DNA from: a virus | Lineage: Duplodnaviria; Heunggongvirae; Uroviricota; Caudoviricetes | IMG/VR virus record: IMGVR_UViG_3300013902_000006 | DNA: 64,000 bases | Reading direction: 5' to 3' (one strand) | In this document: positions 1,639-62,531 of the stretch, in pieces | How the letters are laid out: every line of letters starts with the position of its first letter | Position numbering within the stretch: position 1 is the first letter of the stretch | The notes under the pieces: generated by a model | Told to the model about the DNA's origin: nothing | The model's input: the letters and a program-made list of their open reading frames with translations, nothing else | The model's database searches: none | Translations under genes and position numbers: made by a program

Positions 1639-3966
1639 ATGAAGGTTCAAAAAAGGGACAAAACTTTAGAGTTGTTTAATTTTGATAAGATTTATAATGC
1701 TGTAGATAAGGCGTTTAAGTCTTGTGGAAAGGAAACACCAGAGGGGGTGCTTGAATGTATAAAATATAAATACGATGAAGCATTAGATGTTGTCGTAAAC
1801 ATCGAGGATATACAAGATGATGTCGAGGATTGCCTTATGGAAATCGATAAAGCCGTTGCAAAGGCGTATATCATCTATCGTTACGAACACAAGATGATTA
1901 GAGATAATGACAGCAAGTTATCAAAGGAAATCAAGAAGAAATTGATGGCGACCGACGTACAAAACCAAAACGCTAATTTGGATGAACATTCCTTCGGTGG
2001 TAAGAAAGGCGAGGTTACTGAATATGTGTTTAAGGATTATGCCCTAAGAAATTGTATGTCAAGGAAATCGAGAAACAATCACAATAATAACGAGATTTAT
2101 ATTCACGACCTAGGTTCATATGCCGATGGAGAACACAATTGTCTATCATACCCTATTGATTACTCATATCGAGATGGTACAAAGACAAGACAAGTGGATA
2201 TACGTCCAGCAAACAGTATAAATACAGCATTTCAGTTGCTTGCAGTATATTTCCAGATACAAAGTTTGCAACAATTTGGTGGTGTCTCAGTGACTCATCT
2301 GGATTGGTCGATGGTGCCATATGTGAGGAAATCGTTTTTTAAGCATTTTACGTTCGAATATATTCTTGATTGTGCGAAACACGAAGGTTATGATACGACT
2401 TCAATGAGCAAAGATGAGTGGGATAAATATAAGAAGGAAAAACGTGAGGAATTTAAAAATAAGTACGATATAAAAGATGAAAAATTCACAATAGGTGATT
2501 TCTCAATAAATATTGTCGATTTTCATATTGATGATACTAAGATAAGAGAGATAAACTATGATTGGTACGTAAGGGCATATGATGAGACTAAAAGTGAATT
2601 GGAACAAGCGGTCGAAGGAATGTATCATAATCTTAATTCACTCCAAAGCAGAAGTGGATGTCAACTTCCGTTCAGTTCTATTAACTACGGAACTTGTACA
2701 TTACCTGAGGGACGAATGGTCATAAGAGCATTATTGGAGGGGTCTCTTGACGGAGTCGGTAAATTCCATAAGACACCGATATTCCCTTGTGGAATTTTCC
2801 AATTGATGAATGGTGTTAATAAACACGAAGGTGAGCCTAATTATGATTTATTCAAATTGGCGTTGAAGTCAACAAGTCAAAGGCTGTATCCGAATTATGT
2901 GAATGTAGATTGGAGTAACAATGAGGGGTATGATAAAGATAACCCTATGACATATACCAGCACGATGGGCTGTAGAACTTACAATGGTTTCGACATTAAT
3001 GGCTTCGGTCAATTGAAGGACGGTCGGGGAAATATTTGTCCTGTGACTATCATTTTACCGACATTGGCAATGGAAGCAAAGGAAATGTACAATGAAAAAG
3101 CTAACAAGAATGAATTACAAGAAAATGAAACTGTCGTAACCATCTTTATGAAGTTACTCTCCAAAAAAATAGGAGAGGCAAAGGATATGCTCCTCGAAAG
3201 GTTTGAATGGATTTGCAGTCAGTCTCCTAAATCGGCGAAATTTATGTATGAGAATAATACGATGTTCGGATATAAACCAGAGGAAGGTATAAGGTCTGCA
3301 TTGAAACATGGTACATTAGCCGTGGGTCAACTCGGATTAGCTGAATGCTTGCAAGCGTTGATTGGGACAGATCATACGACAGAAGAAGGAATGAAATTAG
3401 CGATTGAGATTGAAAGTCTGTTTGCCAAGAAGTGCAAGGAATACAAAAAGAAATATAGTTTGAACTTCGGCGTATATCTGACCCCTGCTGAGAATCTTTG
3501 TTATACTGCGATGAAGAAGTTCAAAGCGAAATACGGTGTGATACCTAATGTTTCAGATAGAGAGTATTTTACGAACTCGATGCATGTTCCTGTGTGGAAG
3601 GAGATGACACCGTTCGAAAAAATTGATATTGAGTCTAAATTGACGGGTTTTTCAAATGCGGGCTGCATTACCTATGTGGAGTTACCTTCAACGACTAAGT
3701 ATAATCTCGATGCGCTTGAGACTATTGTACTTTATGCAATGGATAAGGATATTCCTTATTTTGCGGTTAATGTACCGAATGACACGTGTCGCCAATGCGG
3801 GTATAGAGATGAGATAAATGACAAATGCCCTATGTGTGGTTGTAGTGATATAGAAAGATTGAGACGGGTGACCGGATATCTTACTGGCGACTATATGACC
3901 TCATTTAACGTAGGTAAACGATATGAAACTGAAGATAGAGTCAAACACATTAAACGTTTCAGATGA
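1639..3966 (+). CDS. nrdD: Anaerobic ribonucleoside-triphosphate reductase, class III (NrdD)
   Basis: C-terminal Zn-ribbon CRQCGY...CPMCGC followed by the glycyl-radical motif RRVTGYL. Size 775 aa. Immediately followed by the activase with a 4-bp overlap. Confidence 0.85.
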   Translation: MKVQKRDKTLELFNFDKIYNAVDKAFKSCGKETPEGVLECIKYKYDEALDVVVNIEDIQDDVEDCLMEIDKAVAKAYIIYRYEHKMIRDNDSKLSKEIKKKLMATDVQNQNANLDEHSFGGKKGEVTEYVFKDYALRNCMSRKSRNNHNNNEIYIHDLGSYADGEHNCLSYPIDYSYRDGTKTRQVDIRPANSINTAFQLLAVYFQIQSLQQFGGVSVTHLDWSMVPYVRKSFFKHFTFEYILDCAKHEGYDTTSMSKDEWDKYKKEKREEFKNKYDIKDEKFTIGDFSINIVDFHIDDTKIREINYDWYVRAYDETKSELEQAVEGMYHNLNSLQSRSGCQLPFSSINYGTCTLPEGRMVIRALLEGSLDGVGKFHKTPIFPCGIFQLMNGVNKHEGEPNYDLFKLALKSTSQRLYPNYVNVDWSNNEGYDKDNPMTYTSTMGCRTYNGFDINGFGQLKDGRGNICPVTIILPTLAMEAKEMYNEKANKNELQENETVVTIFMKLLSKKIGEAKDMLLERFEWICSQSPKSAKFMYENNTMFGYKPEEGIRSALKHGTLAVGQLGLAECLQALIGTDHTTEEGMKLAIEIESLFAKKCKEYKKKYSLNFGVYLTPAENLCYTAMKKFKAKYGVIPNVSDREYFTNSMHVPVWKEMTPFEKIDIESKLTGFSNAGCITYVELPSTTKYNLDALETIVLYAMDKDIPYFAVNVPNDTCRQCGYRDEINDKCPMCGCSDIERLRRVTGYLTGDYMTSFNVGKRYETEDRVKHIKRFR

Positions 3967-28832: not shown

Positions 28833-28954
28833 TAATTTATTTTTTAATTTTTAATTGTTTTTTATTAATTAAATAATATATAATGGTCCGTATACATGTA
28901 TACGGATTTTTTATTTTTTAACTTTTAATATTTTGTTATTTAAGAAATAAATTG

Positions 28955-28962
28955 TATTTTTG
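28955..28962 (+). promoter_or_regulatory. Bacteroidetes-type -7 box TATTTTTG(CA) upstream of the primase gene
   Basis: Matches TAnnTTTG and lies 44 nt before the ATG. Confidence 0.4.
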
Positions 28963-43247: not shown

Positions 43248-43373
43248 TTTATTTAACGTATAAATTTTATTTCCTGTTATAGGTAAAGACAAATATAAAT
43301 CAATAATTAAGTCTTTACCTATTTTTTTTATTATTTTTAACAATTAAAATTTGCTTCTGACGATTTAATTTTG

Positions 43374-43381
43374 TACCTTTG
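43374..43381 (+). promoter_or_regulatory. -7 box TACCTTTG(CA) upstream of dnaJ
   Basis: TAnnTTTG match 21 nt before the ATG. The same TACCTTTGCA decamer recurs at 49156, 56101 and 62524. Confidence 0.45.
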
Positions 43382-49111: not shown

Positions 49112-49155
49112 CATCTTTTAAGGAAAAATAATTTTGTTTATTGGAAATAATGTAG

Positions 49156-49163
49156 TACCTTTG
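49156..49163 (+). promoter_or_regulatory. -7 box TACCTTTG(CA) upstream of the lipoprotein gene
   Basis: TAnnTTTG match 30 nt before the ATG. Confidence 0.45.
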
Positions 49164-58176: not shown

Positions 58177-58208
58177 TTAACTTTGTAAATATAATATATC
58201 TTAATAAA

Positions 58209-58988
58209 ATGGCAACAAGCAAAGGAGTAATTAAAAATATTAATACTGATCAGCATAGAATTTTAGCTGATATAATGAAATTATATAATGATAATAAAGG
58301 ATTTGAATTAGATCCTACATATTCAAAAGGTAATTTCTACGGTGACTTTAAATGGATTAACGATTATGGGGAGAGAGAAACATATACGATACCACAGCCT
58401 AAATATAAAATGGATGTATTCCCGATAAGGGATGATGTTCAGAAACTTGAATTAATGGGGGATTTTCCTTTTGATGATAAGTCTATCAACAGTTGTAACG
58501 TAGATTTACCATTTGTTATCAGCATAGGTCCTTCTATGGGTAATGGTAATAAAAATTCAAATATTACATCAAATCGATTTTCATCTTTTTATCCTTTGAG
58601 TAATCTTATAGAAACTTATTATCATTTTTTAAAGGAAACTTATCGGGTACTAAAGGATAATGGAATCCTTGTATGGAAATGTCAACGAACAATTACCGGA
58701 GGTAAGACTTTAAATTCACCGGAAATATCTTGGTTGTTTGCTGAAAGTATAGGCTTTGACTGTGTTGATGCATTTTATCTTGAAGGAAAATCGAGACTCA
58801 TCAGCGGTAAAATAAAGAAACAAGAACACAGTCGTTCATATGTTTCAATATTTTATGTGTTTAAAAAGTCCACGAGAAAAAAAATTGATTATTTAACAAC
58901 CTTTAGTGAGACAGTAAGGGATGACATTTTAAGAGGTATAAGGGAAAATAATATAAAAAAAGGTAGAAAATTTTTAAGCGAATTTTAA
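58209..58988 (+). CDS. Hypothetical protein
   Basis: 259-aa ORF. A weak DLPF motif near residue 100 is not a convincing MTase motif IV. Confidence 0.4.
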   Translation: MATSKGVIKNINTDQHRILADIMKLYNDNKGFELDPTYSKGNFYGDFKWINDYGERETYTIPQPKYKMDVFPIRDDVQKLELMGDFPFDDKSINSCNVDLPFVISIGPSMGNGNKNSNITSNRFSSFYPLSNLIETYYHFLKETYRVLKDNGILVWKCQRTITGGKTLNSPEISWLFAESIGFDCVDAFYLEGKSRLISGKIKKQEHSRSYVSIFYVFKKSTRKKIDYLTTFSETVRDDILRGIRENNIKKGRKFLSEF

Positions 58989-59012
58989 TTTGTTAAAAAT
59001 AATTAGAGAATA

Positions 59013-59523
59013 TTGTTTTACAATGTGACGAAAGAAAAATTTATTGAAAAAAGCAACAAGATACATAATAATAAATATGACTATTCAAAAGTAGACTATA
59101 TAAATGCCAATACAAAAGTCTGTATTATTTGTCCGGAGCATGGTGAATTTTGGATGACTCCTACCGCACATATGTATCAAAGACAAAATTGTCCTGATTG
59201 TGCTAAAAAAGAAACCGCCATAAAACGCACTAAGAATACTGATTGGTTTATACGAACAAGCATTTAAAGTACATGGTAATAAGTACGATTACTCGAAAGC
59301 TGTATATCAGAATACAGAAGCCAAGGTTTGCATCATTTGTCCTGAGCACGGCGAATTTTGGCAAACCCCTCATAATCATCTATGTACTACGAAACCACAA
59401 GGTTGTCCTAAATGTGGAAAGGAACAGTATATTATTAAAAATACTAAAATTGAAAATGATTTTATAAATGAATGCATTAAAAGGATAAACATCATGTTAA
59501 TTTTAATTAAACCATTACATTAG
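59013..59523 (+). pseudogene. Frameshifted, truncated paralog of the 7323..8234 repeat endonuclease-like gene
   Basis: Repeat 1 (KYDYSKVDYINANTKVCIICPEHGEFWMTP..CPDC) is in frame 2 and ends at 59267. Repeat 2 (KVHGNKYDYSKAVYQNTEAKVCIICPEHGEFWQTP..GCPKCG) continues in frame 0 up to the TAG at 59521. A single extra C in tttata-c-gaacaagca near 59256 restores FIEQAFKVHGNKYDY. No C-terminal nuclease domain. Confidence 0.6.
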
Positions 59524-59591
59524 TACTGGTTTTTTACTTTTATATTAGAAAAAAGTAGTACATTTGTAACAAGAATACAAATGGACACAAC

Positions 59592-60353
59592 GTGAGTTTA
59601 TTCATTACAAATGAAGAGTTTGTCAAAAGTAAGATAAAACTTAAAAAATACAATCAAGAATGGAAAAAATATTCGGCAAGGAAATATGTCGGTGATTGTT
59701 CTTATTTATTCGAGAAACTGAAACCATCATCATATAAGGATTTCTACGAAAAATACATTAATGATGGAAAGAAAACAAGTGGAAGTATCAATATTGATGA
59801 TTACCATCGTGGACGAACGGAATGGGAAATAATAGATAATGCGAAATATTTGTATGATACTATCTGTAAGAGATATCCCGACGATAATGTAAATTTCGTT
59901 GACTGTCTGAATGTCACAGTAGGTCATACAATACACGAAACATATGATGGACACATTGTCGAAAACATCGTGGATGAAATGTTTAATAAAAAAGGTCTTA
60001 AAACAATTAAACCTTGTGGCGATGCTGATACGTTGTATGGTATTGACCGTTTTTGTTACATAGACGGCAAGTTGCAATTTACATTACAGATAAAACCCAT
60101 ATCATTTTTCTTGGGAAATTCAAATAGAAGTCTGATAGAAGATAGAATATCAGCTTTCAACAAAGGTAGGAAGGCTCAAGAGGTTTTTAATGTTAAGATG
60201 TATTACATAATATACGACGGTTCTGTAAGTAGCGAGAACAATGTTGGTTTTGTTTGCAAGCCTAATAACAAGATGGCATTTGAGCTATCTGAGTTATGCA
60301 ATTGTGATGGAACTGTTAAGATATTACCGAAAAATCGTTGTTTTAACAATTAA
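59592..60353 (+). CDS. Hypothetical protein
   Basis: 253-aa ORF. Confidence 0.45.
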   Translation: MSLFITNEEFVKSKIKLKKYNQEWKKYSARKYVGDCSYLFEKLKPSSYKDFYEKYINDGKKTSGSINIDDYHRGRTEWEIIDNAKYLYDTICKRYPDDNVNFVDCLNVTVGHTIHETYDGHIVENIVDEMFNKKGLKTIKPCGDADTLYGIDRFCYIDGKLQFTLQIKPISFFLGNSNRSLIEDRISAFNKGRKAQEVFNVKMYYIIYDGSVSSENNVGFVCKPNNKMAFELSELCNCDGTVKILPKNRCFNN

Positions 60354-60389
60354 TAACTTATTTTTCTTTGTTGTTACGTATATTTTCAG

Positions 60390-60397
60390 TATCTTTG
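60390..60397 (+). promoter_or_regulatory. -7 box TATCTTTG(CA)
   Basis: TAnnTTTG match 30 nt before ATG 60428. Confidence 0.4.
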
Positions 60398-60427
60398 CAC
60401 TCGTAATCGAAATTAATTAATAAACAT

Positions 60428-60652
60428 ATGCAAGAAATCTATATTCTTATAAAAAGTGAAGGAATCTATGATTCACAGACGAGTTTTCCTGTTGCTGCAT
60501 TTATGAACCGAGAAGCTGCCGAGAAGGAGTGCAAACGTTTGAATGACGAAATGGATGATTTGCAAAGTCTATTTCCGATGCAAGCTGGGGCGCGTTCGTC
60601 ACAATGTTGGAATACAAAGCTAAGTGGTATGGAAAGACCCTATCCAAGATAG
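60428..60652 (+). CDS. Small hypothetical ORF whose 3' end runs into the TnpB remnant
   Basis: 74-aa ORF with a canonical promoter. Possibly a chimeric reading frame created by the IS insertion or deletion. Confidence 0.3.
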   Translation: MQEIYILIKSEGIYDSQTSFPVAAFMNREAAEKECKRLNDEMDDLQSLFPMQAGARSSQCWNTKLSGMERPYPR

Positions 60653-60915
60653 GAAGGTTCTATCCATCCTCAAAAACTTGCCATTATTGCGGCTATGTCA
60701 AGGAAGACTTGACTTTGTCTGACCGTTACTACACTTGCCCTAATTGTGGCAAGCTGATAGACAGAGACTTGAATGCAGCAAAGAACATCCTTGAGGAAGG
60801 AATAAGAAACATATCGGCAGGAACTGTCGATTACACCGATGGAGGGGGCGTAAGACTTGCTCGCAAGCATTCCCCGATGAAGTCGGAATCCCACAAGTCT
60901 TTAGCTTGTGGGTAG
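60559..60915 (+). mobile_element. tnpB: IS200/IS605-family TnpB (OrfB) C-terminal fragment with the element right-end hairpin; decayed IS
   Basis: In-frame translation ISDASWGAFVTMLEYKAKWYGKTLSKIGRFYPSSKTCHYCG...YTCPNCGKLIDRDLNAAKNILEEG matches the TnpB RuvC-II/Zn-finger/RuvC-III end (DASWGEF..LEYKA.W.G, SSKTCS.CG, DRDVNAAINI). The hairpin CCCACAAG-TCTTTAG-CTTGTGGG at 60890..60912 overlaps the stop, as expected for IS605 right-end/omega-RNA scaffolds. About 280 N-terminal aa are missing. Confidence 0.6.
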
Positions 60916-60985
60916 TTCAAGAAGGCTTGCCATCATACTATGTAACGAATGAGAGCATTCCTTTGTATAATTAAAGATTAATTTT

Positions 60986-61756
60986 ATGAGATACTGTGGT
61001 AGTAAAAGAAAATTCATGAAGGAACTTCTTCCTATTCTAATGGAAGGGACGAATGAAAATACTTTGTTTGTGGACGTTTTCGGTGGAGGAATGAACGTAG
61101 TGTCCGAAATTCCTCTTGAGAAGAAAATTGCGAATGATAACAATCTGTATGTAGTAAGTCTTTGGAAATCTTTACAAAGTCATAAATTAAAAGGGACATT
61201 GCTTCCTCGACTGATAAATGACCATGTTACAGAAGAGGAGTATAGTGATGTAAAACGTAGTTTTCTCGATAAATCGGCCAAGTATTCATATGCCGAGATT
61301 GGTTATGTCGGTGCTGCTTTGTCATACGGAGGTGCATTTTTCAATGGTTATGCAAAGTTCAATCCAAAGAAAAATGAAGACCACGTAAAAGAGGCGTACA
61401 ACGGACTGATGAAACAATTGGAAGGGTTCAAAAACCTTGACACGACTGAATTTGTCTGCGAAGACTATCGTAATTTGAAGTTTAATAATGAGGGCGACGC
61501 ATTTAATGTAGTTCTATTTTGTGATCCTCCGTATTTTGCCACCCGTAAGTATTTGAGTGACTTTGATACTGAATTATTTTGGGGTTGGGTGAGAGAACAA
61601 TCGATTAGAGGCTATAAGGTATATGTCTGTGAATATGATGCACCATCCGATTTCAAATGCGTATGGAGCAAAAAGAAGAAAGATGGAATGGGCACGACAA
61701 AAACCGGACGTAAGCAGAGTACTAAAGTCGAGAAAATGTTTGTATACAATGGTTAA
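60986..61756 (+). CDS. Second Dam/D12-class DNA N6-adenine methyltransferase
   Basis: MRYCGSKRKFMKELLPIL, FVDVFGGGMNV (FxGxG) and LFCDPPYFATRKY (DPPY). Confidence 0.75.
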   Translation: MRYCGSKRKFMKELLPILMEGTNENTLFVDVFGGGMNVVSEIPLEKKIANDNNLYVVSLWKSLQSHKLKGTLLPRLINDHVTEEEYSDVKRSFLDKSAKYSYAEIGYVGAALSYGGAFFNGYAKFNPKKNEDHVKEAYNGLMKQLEGFKNLDTTEFVCEDYRNLKFNNEGDAFNVVLFCDPPYFATRKYLSDFDTELFWGWVREQSIRGYKVYVCEYDAPSDFKCVWSKKKKDGMGTTKTGRKQSTKVEKMFVYNG

Positions 61757-61783
61757 TTGAAAGAGTAATAAGATAAATAAATA

Positions 61784-62239
61784 ATGACAAATAAAATAGG
61801 AGATGCAAGGCATCTTAAAGATGAAATAAAAGATTTAGTTGGCAAGAAACTGCCTATTTGTATTGATGTTGATGGTACAGTGGTGTTCCATCATTATCCA
61901 AAGTTGGGCAAGGATGCACCGCACTGTGTCGAGACGCTTAAGAAATGGACTGACAATGGAGTAGGCTTGATTATTGATACAATGCGCAGTGGCAAGGAAC
62001 TTGATGCTGCAATCAAGTGGTTCAAAGACAGAGATATTCCAATTTACGGTGTAGGTAAGGAACCAGGACAAAGTAAATGGACAGACAGCCCAAAGGCATA
62101 CGGTGTGTTATCCATTGACGATAGGAATGTTGGTGTGCCTCTTATATATGAGGACGGTGAGCGACCTTGTGTCGATTGGAAGAAAATAGACAAAGAATAT
62201 TCTGAAAGTATTCTTAAACTTGCAGAGAATTATAAATAA
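61784..62239 (+). CDS. HAD-superfamily hydrolase-like protein (DxDGT motif)
   Basis: LPICIDVDGTVV motif I. Small size (151 aa), comparable to phage deoxynucleotidases/3'-phosphatases. Confidence 0.4.
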   Translation: MTNKIGDARHLKDEIKDLVGKKLPICIDVDGTVVFHHYPKLGKDAPHCVETLKKWTDNGVGLIIDTMRSGKELDAAIKWFKDRDIPIYGVGKEPGQSKWTDSPKAYGVLSIDDRNVGVPLIYEDGERPCVDWKKIDKEYSESILKLAENYK

Positions 62240-62475: not shown

Positions 62476-62523
62476 CTTAATATTTTTTAACTAAAAATAT
62501 TTGGTCTTAATATAAAATTGTTG

Positions 62524-62531
62524 TACCTTTG
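62524..62531 (+). promoter_or_regulatory. -7 box TACCTTTG(CA)
   Basis: TAnnTTTG match 28 nt before ATG 62559. Confidence 0.45.

Follow-up and report, generated by a model that had tools for sequence, protein, structure and literature searches.

A short piece of transposon sequence interrupts a gene of a tailed phage (Caudoviricetes; IMG/VR record IMGVR_UViG_3300013902_000006), of which we analysed a stretch of 64,000 nucleotides (nt), referred to here as the window. Phage genes in the window encode a baseplate wedge, a DnaB-like helicase, NrdD, an SbcC-like protein and a DNA methyltransferase, and contigs of the same phage reach 201 kb. On the plus strand, positions 60559..60915 hold the C-terminal 118 codons of tnpB and the stop codon TAG (60913-60915; translation FAKSISDASWGAFVTMLEYKAKWYGKTLSKIGRFYPSSKTCHYCGYVKEDLTLSDRYYTCPNCGKLIDRDLNAAKNILEEGIRNISAGTVDYTDGGGVRLARKHSPMKSESHKSLACG). 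The G+C content of this fragment is 45.9%, against 34.2% for the window. A megablast search with 59500-62000 against 50,697 phage records gave no match.

The fragment was first recognised in a sequence-only reading of the window, and every motif quoted there is present: DASWG, LEYKAKWYG, SSKTCHYCG...CPNCG and DRDLNAAKNIL. The profile PF07282 (Cas12f1-like TNB domain) matches it with E=1.1e-25 and 90 bits, compared with a cut-off of 26.3; the fragment is the end of a TnpB, and not the complete, unrelated zinc-ribbon protein that the sequence-only reading had named as the outcome that would speak against it. What is retained is the third RuvC motif (DRDLNAA) and the CxxC...CxxC zinc ribbon. The first two RuvC acidic residues lie outside the fragment, leaving one of the three by which a full-length TnpB is recognised, and because nothing but the third motif and the zinc ribbon is left, the fragment is predicted to be dead as a nuclease. 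Also reported at first sight was the loss of the N-terminal two-thirds of TnpB and of any TnpA, and tblastn on the window agrees: no second TnpB-like sequence was found there, and the best match to a TnpA query reached only E=1.1. That query, an IS608 TnpA, detects tnpA in 30 other loci, among them L004, the closest full-length relative, where it lies beside tnpB.

The retained part of tnpB contains neither a frameshift nor an internal stop. Its reading frame is shut by a stop at the junction with phage sequence, and its first ATG lacks a promoter of its own. Across the junction, the open reading frame (ORF) list gives a chimeric ORF of 74 amino acids (60428..60652, plus strand), in which 45 codons of phage origin precede 29 that read tnpB out of frame.

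Comparison by blastn places 60563..60920 (plus strand; 358 nt, plus 3 nt shared with the phage gene) as the 3' end of an ISDra2-like element of the IS200/IS605 family, that is, a solo right end. Over 60560-60920 the nucleotide identity is 90.0% to L004 and 83-84% to full-length elements of Segatella copri and Segatella sinensis. The nearest relatives, obtained by scanning one genome per species, come from S. copri, S. sinensis, a Prevotella metagenome-assembled genome and a contig binned as Waltera, which is probably mis-binned. Thus the full-length insertion sequence (IS) with the same right end, for which the sequence-only reading had proposed searching host genomes, exists in Segatella and Prevotella at 83-90% nucleotide identity. 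These relatives carry a full-length tnpB of 397 codons, some of them together with tnpA. Their proteins align end to end with the ISDra2 TnpB structures 8H1J and 8EXA (E=1e-85), an alignment in which the surroundings of all three RuvC acidic residues can be recognised. In amino acids the fragment is 92% identical to the TnpB of L004 and 85-88% identical to the other Segatella/Prevotella copies (397 amino acids). Among 5.8 billion proteins the closest full-length TnpB was at most 91% identical; since none above 92%, the value for L004, was found, the nuclease best matched to the fragment appears to be unsampled.

In all copies the shared sequence stops at ...GTGGGTAG TTCAA (the wider clade also has TTCAC or TTCAT), and beyond it the flanking sequences differ from the very next base. 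Therefore the right end lies at 60920, and TTCAA at 60916..60920 (plus strand), which includes the last position common to all copies, is the right-end cleavage motif. The span first given for the element, 60559-60915, is correct for the tnpB fragment but falls 5 nt short of this terminus. At the other end, full copies begin with ATAATGTTGCCAAGAAAACCCAAAGGTCTTTAGCC... and form the hairpin ATAATGTTGCCAAGAAAACCCAAAGG-TCTTTAG-CCTCTGGG; in 8 of 12 full copies this left end directly follows TTTAT, and in the others ATTAT, CTTAT, CCTAT or CTCAT. Some copies are autonomous, such as L004, with tnpA on the opposite strand between left end and tnpB and a total length of ~1.75 kb; others carry tnpB only (~1.39 kb). 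Neither the left end nor the left hairpin of the full copies is present in the window, where phage sequence joins tnpB directly at 60560-60562.

Internally deleted derivatives also occur in this IS family (for example P0015, P0023 and the L010 type). As a side observation, S. copri contains mini-derivatives of ~400 nt (L010 2960-3362; P0005-P0008, P0011, P0012), in which a microhomology connects the initial 17 nt of the left end (ATAATGTCGCCAAGAAA) with sequence from inside tnpB (AAGAAACC...) and which lack the left hairpin. They occupy at least three sequence contexts, which suggests recurrent deletion or spread.

Insertion and deletion in the phage gene

A related phage with ~78% identity (L084) carries an uninterrupted gene at the position of the fragment. 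Exact-protein look-ups recovered the intact gene, encoding 176 amino acids, from near-identical phages as well: one version of the protein (P0121) in L181-L185, whose flanks are 98.5-100% identical to those of the window, and another (P0122) in L186. Exact-pattern scans of metagenome and viral contigs for the right flank, and for the flank of a second phage described below, found nothing.

At the right junction the intact allele reads ...GTGATTTTTAT/GAAGGCTTGCCATCATACTATG... and the window ...GGGTAGTTCAA/GAAGGCTTGCCATCATACTATG... (in short form, GTGATTTTTAT/GAAGGCTTGCC and GGGTAGTTCAA/GAAGGCTTGCC). The empty site in L181-L186 is TTTAT/GAAGGC, and there is no target duplication. Because the intact allele and the window differ at exactly this point, we regard it as settled, as far as aligned alleles can settle it, that the element inserted exactly 3' of TTTAT and in sense orientation, as the TnpA route predicts.

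The left junction has a different origin. The phage gene reads ...GATGATTTG/GATCAAAG..., the element ...CATCTTG/CCAAGTC... and the window ...GATGATTTG/CAAAGTC..., where the source copy would have carried GCA instead of GCC. This three-way comparison places a TTG microhomology, common to the phage gene and tnpB, at the deletion junction (60560..60562, plus strand). Upstream of it, codons 1-45 of P0121 survive as the 5' remnant of the gene (60428..60562, plus strand), 100% identical to L181 and L185 and 99% identical to L182-184. Downstream of the element, the last 17 codons and the stop persist as a 3' remnant (60921..60974, plus strand) that matches the end of P0121 (EGLPSYYVTNESIPLYN) and is now untranslated. 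Lost from the phage are codons 46-159, amounting to 342 bp and including TTTAT; lost from the element are the left end, any tnpA and approximately the first two-thirds of tnpB, about 1.0-1.4 kb depending on the form of the source. Judged from these alignments, the locus is a replacement rather than a plain insertion, and one deletion, not erosion, produced the remnant. The proposal that an IS had invaded the phage in the past is borne out by the comparison with the intact allele.

The same sequence of events can be read from a second, independent remnant. It lies in L001-L003, members of a different phage-like family with RecT, YqaJ, KilA-N and resolvase genes, and consists of 158 nt that are 100% identical to window positions 60766-60923 and stand between other flanks (L002 6001-6278). 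The intact allele encodes P0247, a protein of 79 amino acids with an HTH_17 (excisionase-like) domain, and was found in L266-L269 at 1501-1740, where the empty site reads ...AACACCGACTTTAT/GAAAACGCTCC..., that is, TTTAT/GAAAAC. The corresponding remnant reads ...AACACCGACTT/GAATGCAGC...TTCAA/GAAAACGCTCC..., which points to insertion 3' of TTTAT followed by a left-side deletion across the 5-nt microhomology GACTT. Lost in the deletion were the final three bases of TTTAT and the left portion of the element; the resulting product, P0118, is an in-frame fusion of 90 amino acids with 49 TnpB residues and no zinc ribbon. Because TTTAT occurs at only 0.3% of positions in the window and 0.1% of positions in L002, two exact coincidences with this motif are very unlikely. 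The two phage remnants have only their last 158 nt in common, in different reading contexts; since the second keeps just those 49 TnpB residues, they share no protein segment beyond the part that encodes the omega-RNA.

Further right ends of the window type, 100% identical over 55-78 nt, adjoin four or five other flanks in viral and metagenome contigs, mostly at contig ends (L171 6343-6397, L172 7854-7931, L173 1-77 and L274 1081-1093). L172 belongs to a phage with 96% identity to the window near 37.7 kb, L173 to a distantly related one. With the right end beside differing flanks in L171, L172 and L173, this IS lineage must therefore have hit these phages repeatedly. L274, in which the window's left flank and fragment are joined to another right flank with one host-type single-nucleotide polymorphism, is probably an assembly switch and was not used as evidence. 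Separately, the viral contig L138 holds a solo 3' piece (3720-3892) that starts 30 nt 5' of the omega-RNA scaffold and directly follows TTTAT (TTTAT/ATCCTAAAATTAGG...), as if the deletion had begun at the first base of the element.

Taken together, we are nearly certain of the identity and history of the locus: what lies in this non-essential phage gene is the solo right end of an ISDra2-like element, truncated on the left and immobile, and the element came from the phage's Segatella/Prevotella host.

The right-end RNA scaffold and its context

Within the remnant, RNAalifold and pair counts on an alignment of the last 260 nt of 28 clade members delimit a complete omega-RNA scaffold at 60811..60920 (plus strand, as are all of its helices). 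It comprises H1 (60813-60820/60824-60831), H2 (60836-60840/60882-60886), H3 (60854,60856-60859/60864-60868) and H4 (60890-60898/60904-60912), the last with compensatory changes among relatives in 6 of its 9 pairs. A candidate pseudoknot would join GAA (60821-60823) to UUC (60916-60918); its positions show one-sided changes only, and in relatives a GAA or GGA loop can pair with the terminal UUC. The sequence-only reading had pointed out an 8-bp hairpin that overlaps the stop codon. The hairpin, CCCACAAG with CTTGTGGG at 60890-60897/60905-60912, is indeed perfect and forms part of the covarying terminal helix, but it adjoins the TAG without overlapping it.

Across the alignment 98.5% of helix cells are paired, a value that none of 500 shuffles reached, and sliding the helix partners by 1-3 columns leaves 25-45% paired. 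Compensatory changes were seen in 12 helix pairs; one long-range pair appears as CG, UA, GC and AU in 13, 10, 3 and 1 of 27 distinct sequences, respectively. The block ATATCGGCAGGAACTGTCGATTACACCGATGGAG is invariant in the alignment, synonymous sites included. The window itself forms every one of the 27 helix pairs, as well as the 3 pairs of the candidate pseudoknot. In an alignment of the 3' 120 nt it keeps 58 of the 59 positions that are invariant in the other 25 sequences, and the sole changed position (60802) lies outside the scaffold, 11 nt 5' of the first helix. A covariance model scored the window scaffold at 138.6 bits, with the window itself in the training set, and detected no second scaffold in the window. 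Identity to the Segatella copies is 92-96% in the scaffold and 80-87% in the coding part upstream of it. An Rfam scan of 59500-62000 at E<=10 returned chance-level matches only, with no group I intron or IS605-related family, and no match at all within 60455-61323, the stretch containing the element.

A second perfect 8-bp inverted repeat, AAGACTTG with CAAGTCTT (60852-60859/60894-60901), would compete with H3 and H4. It is probably incidental, because only its AAGA/TCTT core is kept in relatives.

By analogy with the 16-nt guide of ISDra2 (PMC10097598), the guide equivalent would be the first 16 nt of flank past the right end, GAAGGCTTGCCATCAT (60921..60936, plus strand). The identical 16-mer stands directly 3' of TTTAT in L181-L186, so that guide and intact allele match at 16/16 positions, and at 20/20 in L181-L185; it has no other close match in the window. 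This correspondence is automatic for any IS605 insertion and is in itself no evidence of function. On the alignment, the remnant scaffold shows the sequence hallmarks of an omega-RNA: a conserved structure spans the 3' end of tnpB and the right end of the element, and a guide taken from the flank comes after it. The suggestion that the locus could give rise to an omega-RNA-like structured RNA is therefore strengthened by a predicted scaffold that is complete and covarying. By contrast, to call the element decayed overstates its condition, given a retained coding part free of frameshifts and stops, the preservation of all scaffold pairs and a single deletion.

A promoter of the Bacteroidetes type, TTTG-N19-TAtcTTTG, is predicted upstream at 60367..60397 (plus strand; TTTG 60367-60370, TAtcTTTG 60390-60397). 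The general motif TTTG-N18-21-TAnnTTTG occurs at 8 sites in the window compared with 2.4 expected, and none of 100 shuffles reached 8. The sites span 4399-62531 (examples are 28932-28962, 43350-43381, 49133-49163 and 62500-62531), and 7 of the 8 lie on the coding strand, mostly 40-70 nt 5' of ORF starts. The excess supports a host in the Bacteroidota, and the eight sites look like a set of phage promoters for the host sigma factor. A scan for sigma-70 promoters and terminators gave results at chance level, and the sigma-70 model is irrelevant for a Bacteroidota host.

The sequence-only reading had a host-type promoter newly driving the 74-codon chimeric ORF. Motif and ORF are both present, but the promoter is that of the disrupted gene rather than a new arrangement, as it also occurs in the intact allele and before the intact gene of L084. 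From this position it would transcribe the chimeric ORF together with the IS remnant, and the omega-RNA would arise within a messenger RNA running towards the downstream methyltransferase gene.

As for the disrupted gene, the intact L084 homologue had no PHROG match and no Pfam domain is recorded for P0121; in the chimeric ORF, Pfam detected nothing beyond a match to DUF5832 below threshold. The gene sits in a cluster resembling DNA-modification genes (58209-61756) that also encodes a protein of 259 amino acids with a faint N6_N4_Mtase match, a protein of 253 amino acids with a weak RE_MjaI match (59592-60353) and, downstream of the remnant, a D12-class N6-adenine methyltransferase (60986-61756). 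Another indel-variable spot lies 1 kb upstream of the remnant at 58177-59495, where the window has ~1.3 kb and L182 ~0.8 kb; it holds small DUF723 (PF05265) ORFs and internal repeats.

Alleles and persistence of the remnant

The exact 74-residue chimeric product was found in 41 contigs from JGI, Logan and ENA (59 index blocks), with coverage up to 609x. The presence of the remnant in so many contigs from three independent sources shows that it is not an artefact. The cluster of intact alleles comprises 8 contigs, two of which (L181 and L185) stop exactly 55 nt past the point where the alleles diverge. Such ends look like bubbles in a de Bruijn graph and suggest that both alleles were present in those samples. 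A search of viral contigs with an N-terminal profile added 79 loci, of which 3 are disrupted ORFs, 3 are cut by a contig end and the rest are full-length; it keeps the best full-coverage matches, so that a comparison with 3'-only pieces is biased.

The flanks of the two alleles have been exchanged. The remnant-bearing L176 has one mismatch to the window across 60315-61747; on either side (59861-60314 and 61748-62005) it diverges by ~5% and has the haplotype seen in intact-allele phages. Conversely, L185 carries the intact allele and the left-flank haplotype of the window. The remnant thus occurs on at least two flank haplotypes with a shared tract of at most about 1.4 kb, and since all four combinations of allele and flank exist within about 250 bp of the site, aligned contigs show recombination around the locus. 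This would fit homing with co-conversion and also ordinary phage mosaicism.

Why, then, has the remnant persisted? In our view it probably does so mainly as a costless passenger that cannot be excised, rather than as an adaptation. A host-derived element entered the gene for the 176-residue protein by the TnpA route, 3' of TTTAT, and a single TTG-TTG deletion then took out the phage segment along with the left end of the element, roughly two-thirds of tnpB and any tnpA. This inactivated the phage gene, evidently at no cost to the phage. Because the left end is gone, what is left of the element can be neither excised nor moved. TnpA excision of a complete element would regenerate TTTAT and the target, exposing the genome to TnpB (PMC10055086); loss of the left end would therefore protect the phage, as excision could no longer restore that site. 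RNA from the remnant would be a by-product that a compatible TnpB could still bind.

Several observations are in line with a passenger but not specific to it. The intactness of the scaffold (27 + 3 pairs, 58/59 positions) and its sense orientation behind a promoter would also fit an RNA function under selection, as would the 41 to 8 excess of remnant over intact contigs, the occurrence of the remnant on more than one flank haplotype with a short shared tract, and the fact that both phage remnants lost TTTAT and kept the whole scaffold. Scaffold intactness is expected anyway if the event was recent, since the flanks differ by only 0-1.5%.

The strongest competing explanation, which we nevertheless consider unlikely, is a selfish allele consisting of a guide RNA only. 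The omega-RNA with guide GAAGGCTTGCCATCAT would be loaded in trans onto TnpB, supplied by host copies or by another phage-borne full copy, and would direct cleavage of the intact allele in phages that co-infect or compete; the rivals would be excluded or, by recombination, converted to the remnant allele (non-restorative homing). The remnant would itself be immune because its TTTAT is deleted. For omega-RNAs of protein-less elements, a use in trans has been proposed (Meers et al., PMC10055086), as has homing into co-infecting phages, the latter with plasmid data (PMC13565253). In favour of this reading, a complete, covariation-supported scaffold stands behind a promoter, an intact allele with TTTAT and a perfectly matching target co-circulates, apparently within single samples to judge by the contig ends of L181 and L185, and host TnpBs are full-length, with scaffolds closely similar to that of the window. 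In addition, the skewed contig counts, the window-like tract of L176 inside flanks of the intact-allele haplotype, and the identical right end at other viral flanks, a sign that the IS lineage is active around these phages, would fit such a mechanism. However, the perfect relation between guide and target arises by construction in every recent IS605 remnant, mosaicism and uneven allele counts are ordinary in phage populations and biased sampling, and the full-length TnpB closest to the fragment is no more than 92% identical. Furthermore, a TnpB usually takes up the RNA made from its own transcript, and infection by a large virulent phage may allow neither much time nor much host expression for loading in trans. 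That a large Segatella phage harbours a nuclease-less 'cheater' drive allele, borrowing TnpB to cut the intact allele, is thus a doubtful proposition; if true, it would explain the excess of the remnant, its short shared tract on mosaic backgrounds and the second remnant that keeps the scaffold without TTTAT.

Far less credible is that the fragment is kept for a protein, either the 74-residue chimera or a zinc-ribbon/RuvC-III peptide of 103 amino acids from 60604, acting for example as a decoy against host TnpB. Both ORFs are open, the zinc-ribbon domain is complete and the shorter ORF is called in all 41 remnant contigs. Against this, a stop at the junction shuts the TnpB frame, whose first ATG is without a promoter of its own, the exact 103-residue product is absent from a collection of 15 billion proteins, and 29 of the 74 residues in the chimera are an out-of-frame reading of tnpB. 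The second remnant, with 49 TnpB residues, lacks the zinc ribbon altogether, and here the isolated RuvC-III and zinc ribbon are without two of the three catalytic residues.

The idea that the remnant is still mobile or self-removing, either as a miniature element mobilised by TnpA in trans, for which the internally deleted derivatives of the same family (P0015, P0023 and L010 type) offer a precedent, or as an intron-like IStron restoring the gene, IStrons being combinations of IS605 ends with group I introns (PMC10690162), is refuted as far as sequence can refute it and deserves almost no credence, because there is no left end or left hairpin for TnpA excision, the Rfam scan of 60455-61323 contains no group I intron, and splicing cannot restore a gene from which 342 bp of coding sequence are missing.

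Comparison with known systems

A truncated IS in a phage is ordinary; what is unusual here is how completely the case resolves. Public data give the target motif, the exact site of insertion, the junction left by the deletion and the ancestral, intact allele, and they contain a second, independent event. The outcome is a natural two-allele system: the intact allele supplies TTTAT and the target, the remnant nothing but the guide RNA. Being found in an abundant phage-host pair of the human gut, it makes two ideas testable that have so far been argued mostly from plasmid experiments and theory, namely the use of omega-RNAs by TnpB in trans and the spread of IS605 elements by non-restorative homing. 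Also gained are a transposon-associated motif (TAM; TTTAT) and an omega-RNA model backed by covariation, both for a clade of Segatella/Prevotella TnpBs close to ISDra2.

The remnant has the TNB domain, the right-end hairpin and cleavage motif, and the insertion 3' of a short motif without duplication that characterise IS200/IS605 elements. With a full TnpB, the left end and tnpA all missing, it counts as what is left of a family member and not as a functional one. ISDra2 of Deinococcus radiodurans is the closest point of reference. Its omega-RNA likewise overlaps the tnpB 3' end and right end, the scaffold of about 110-116 nt has four stems in both, and both elements insert 3' of a pentanucleotide. 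The ISDra2 omega-RNA has a 116-nt scaffold with four stems, a pseudoknot pairing -5..-3 with -103..-105, and a 16-nt guide (PMC10097598); the candidate pairing of 3'-UUC with 5'-GAA in the remnant would mirror this pseudoknot. Unlike ISDra2, the remnant consists of the last 358 nt only, without nuclease, left end or tnpA, and sits in a phage gene; its motif is TTTAT, compared with TTGAT in ISDra2.

Like palindrome-associated transposable elements (PATEs) and other IS200/IS605 derivatives that have no protein gene yet specify omega-RNAs, the remnant is a guide-RNA module without a nuclease of its own that would need TnpB in trans (PMC10055086). It was rejected as a PATE since both ends are required: PATEs keep both and can be mobilised by TnpA, whereas the remnant has no left end and is fixed in place. 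Nor is it a TldR or another domesticated nuclease-dead TnpB, which needs a nearly full-length protein; only 118 C-terminal codons remain here and their frame is closed at the junction.

In its population structure the locus resembles the free-standing homing endonuclease genes of T4-like phages (SegF and SegB, with localized marker exclusion) and the non-restorative homing of TnpB, with a polymorphic locus, an element in one allele that is specific for the other, and short shared tracts on mosaic backgrounds (PMC13565253). Unlike SegF and SegB, the remnant encodes no nuclease, and any drive would need a borrowed TnpB. A virus with only the RNA part of an RNA-guided system also has a parallel in the solitary CRISPR repeats and mini-arrays of phages that use host Cas proteins, some of which are experimentally supported. 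Those belong to another RNA family with another origin and are aimed at host defence or rival elements, whereas the remnant described here is a by-product of a deletion in a transposon.

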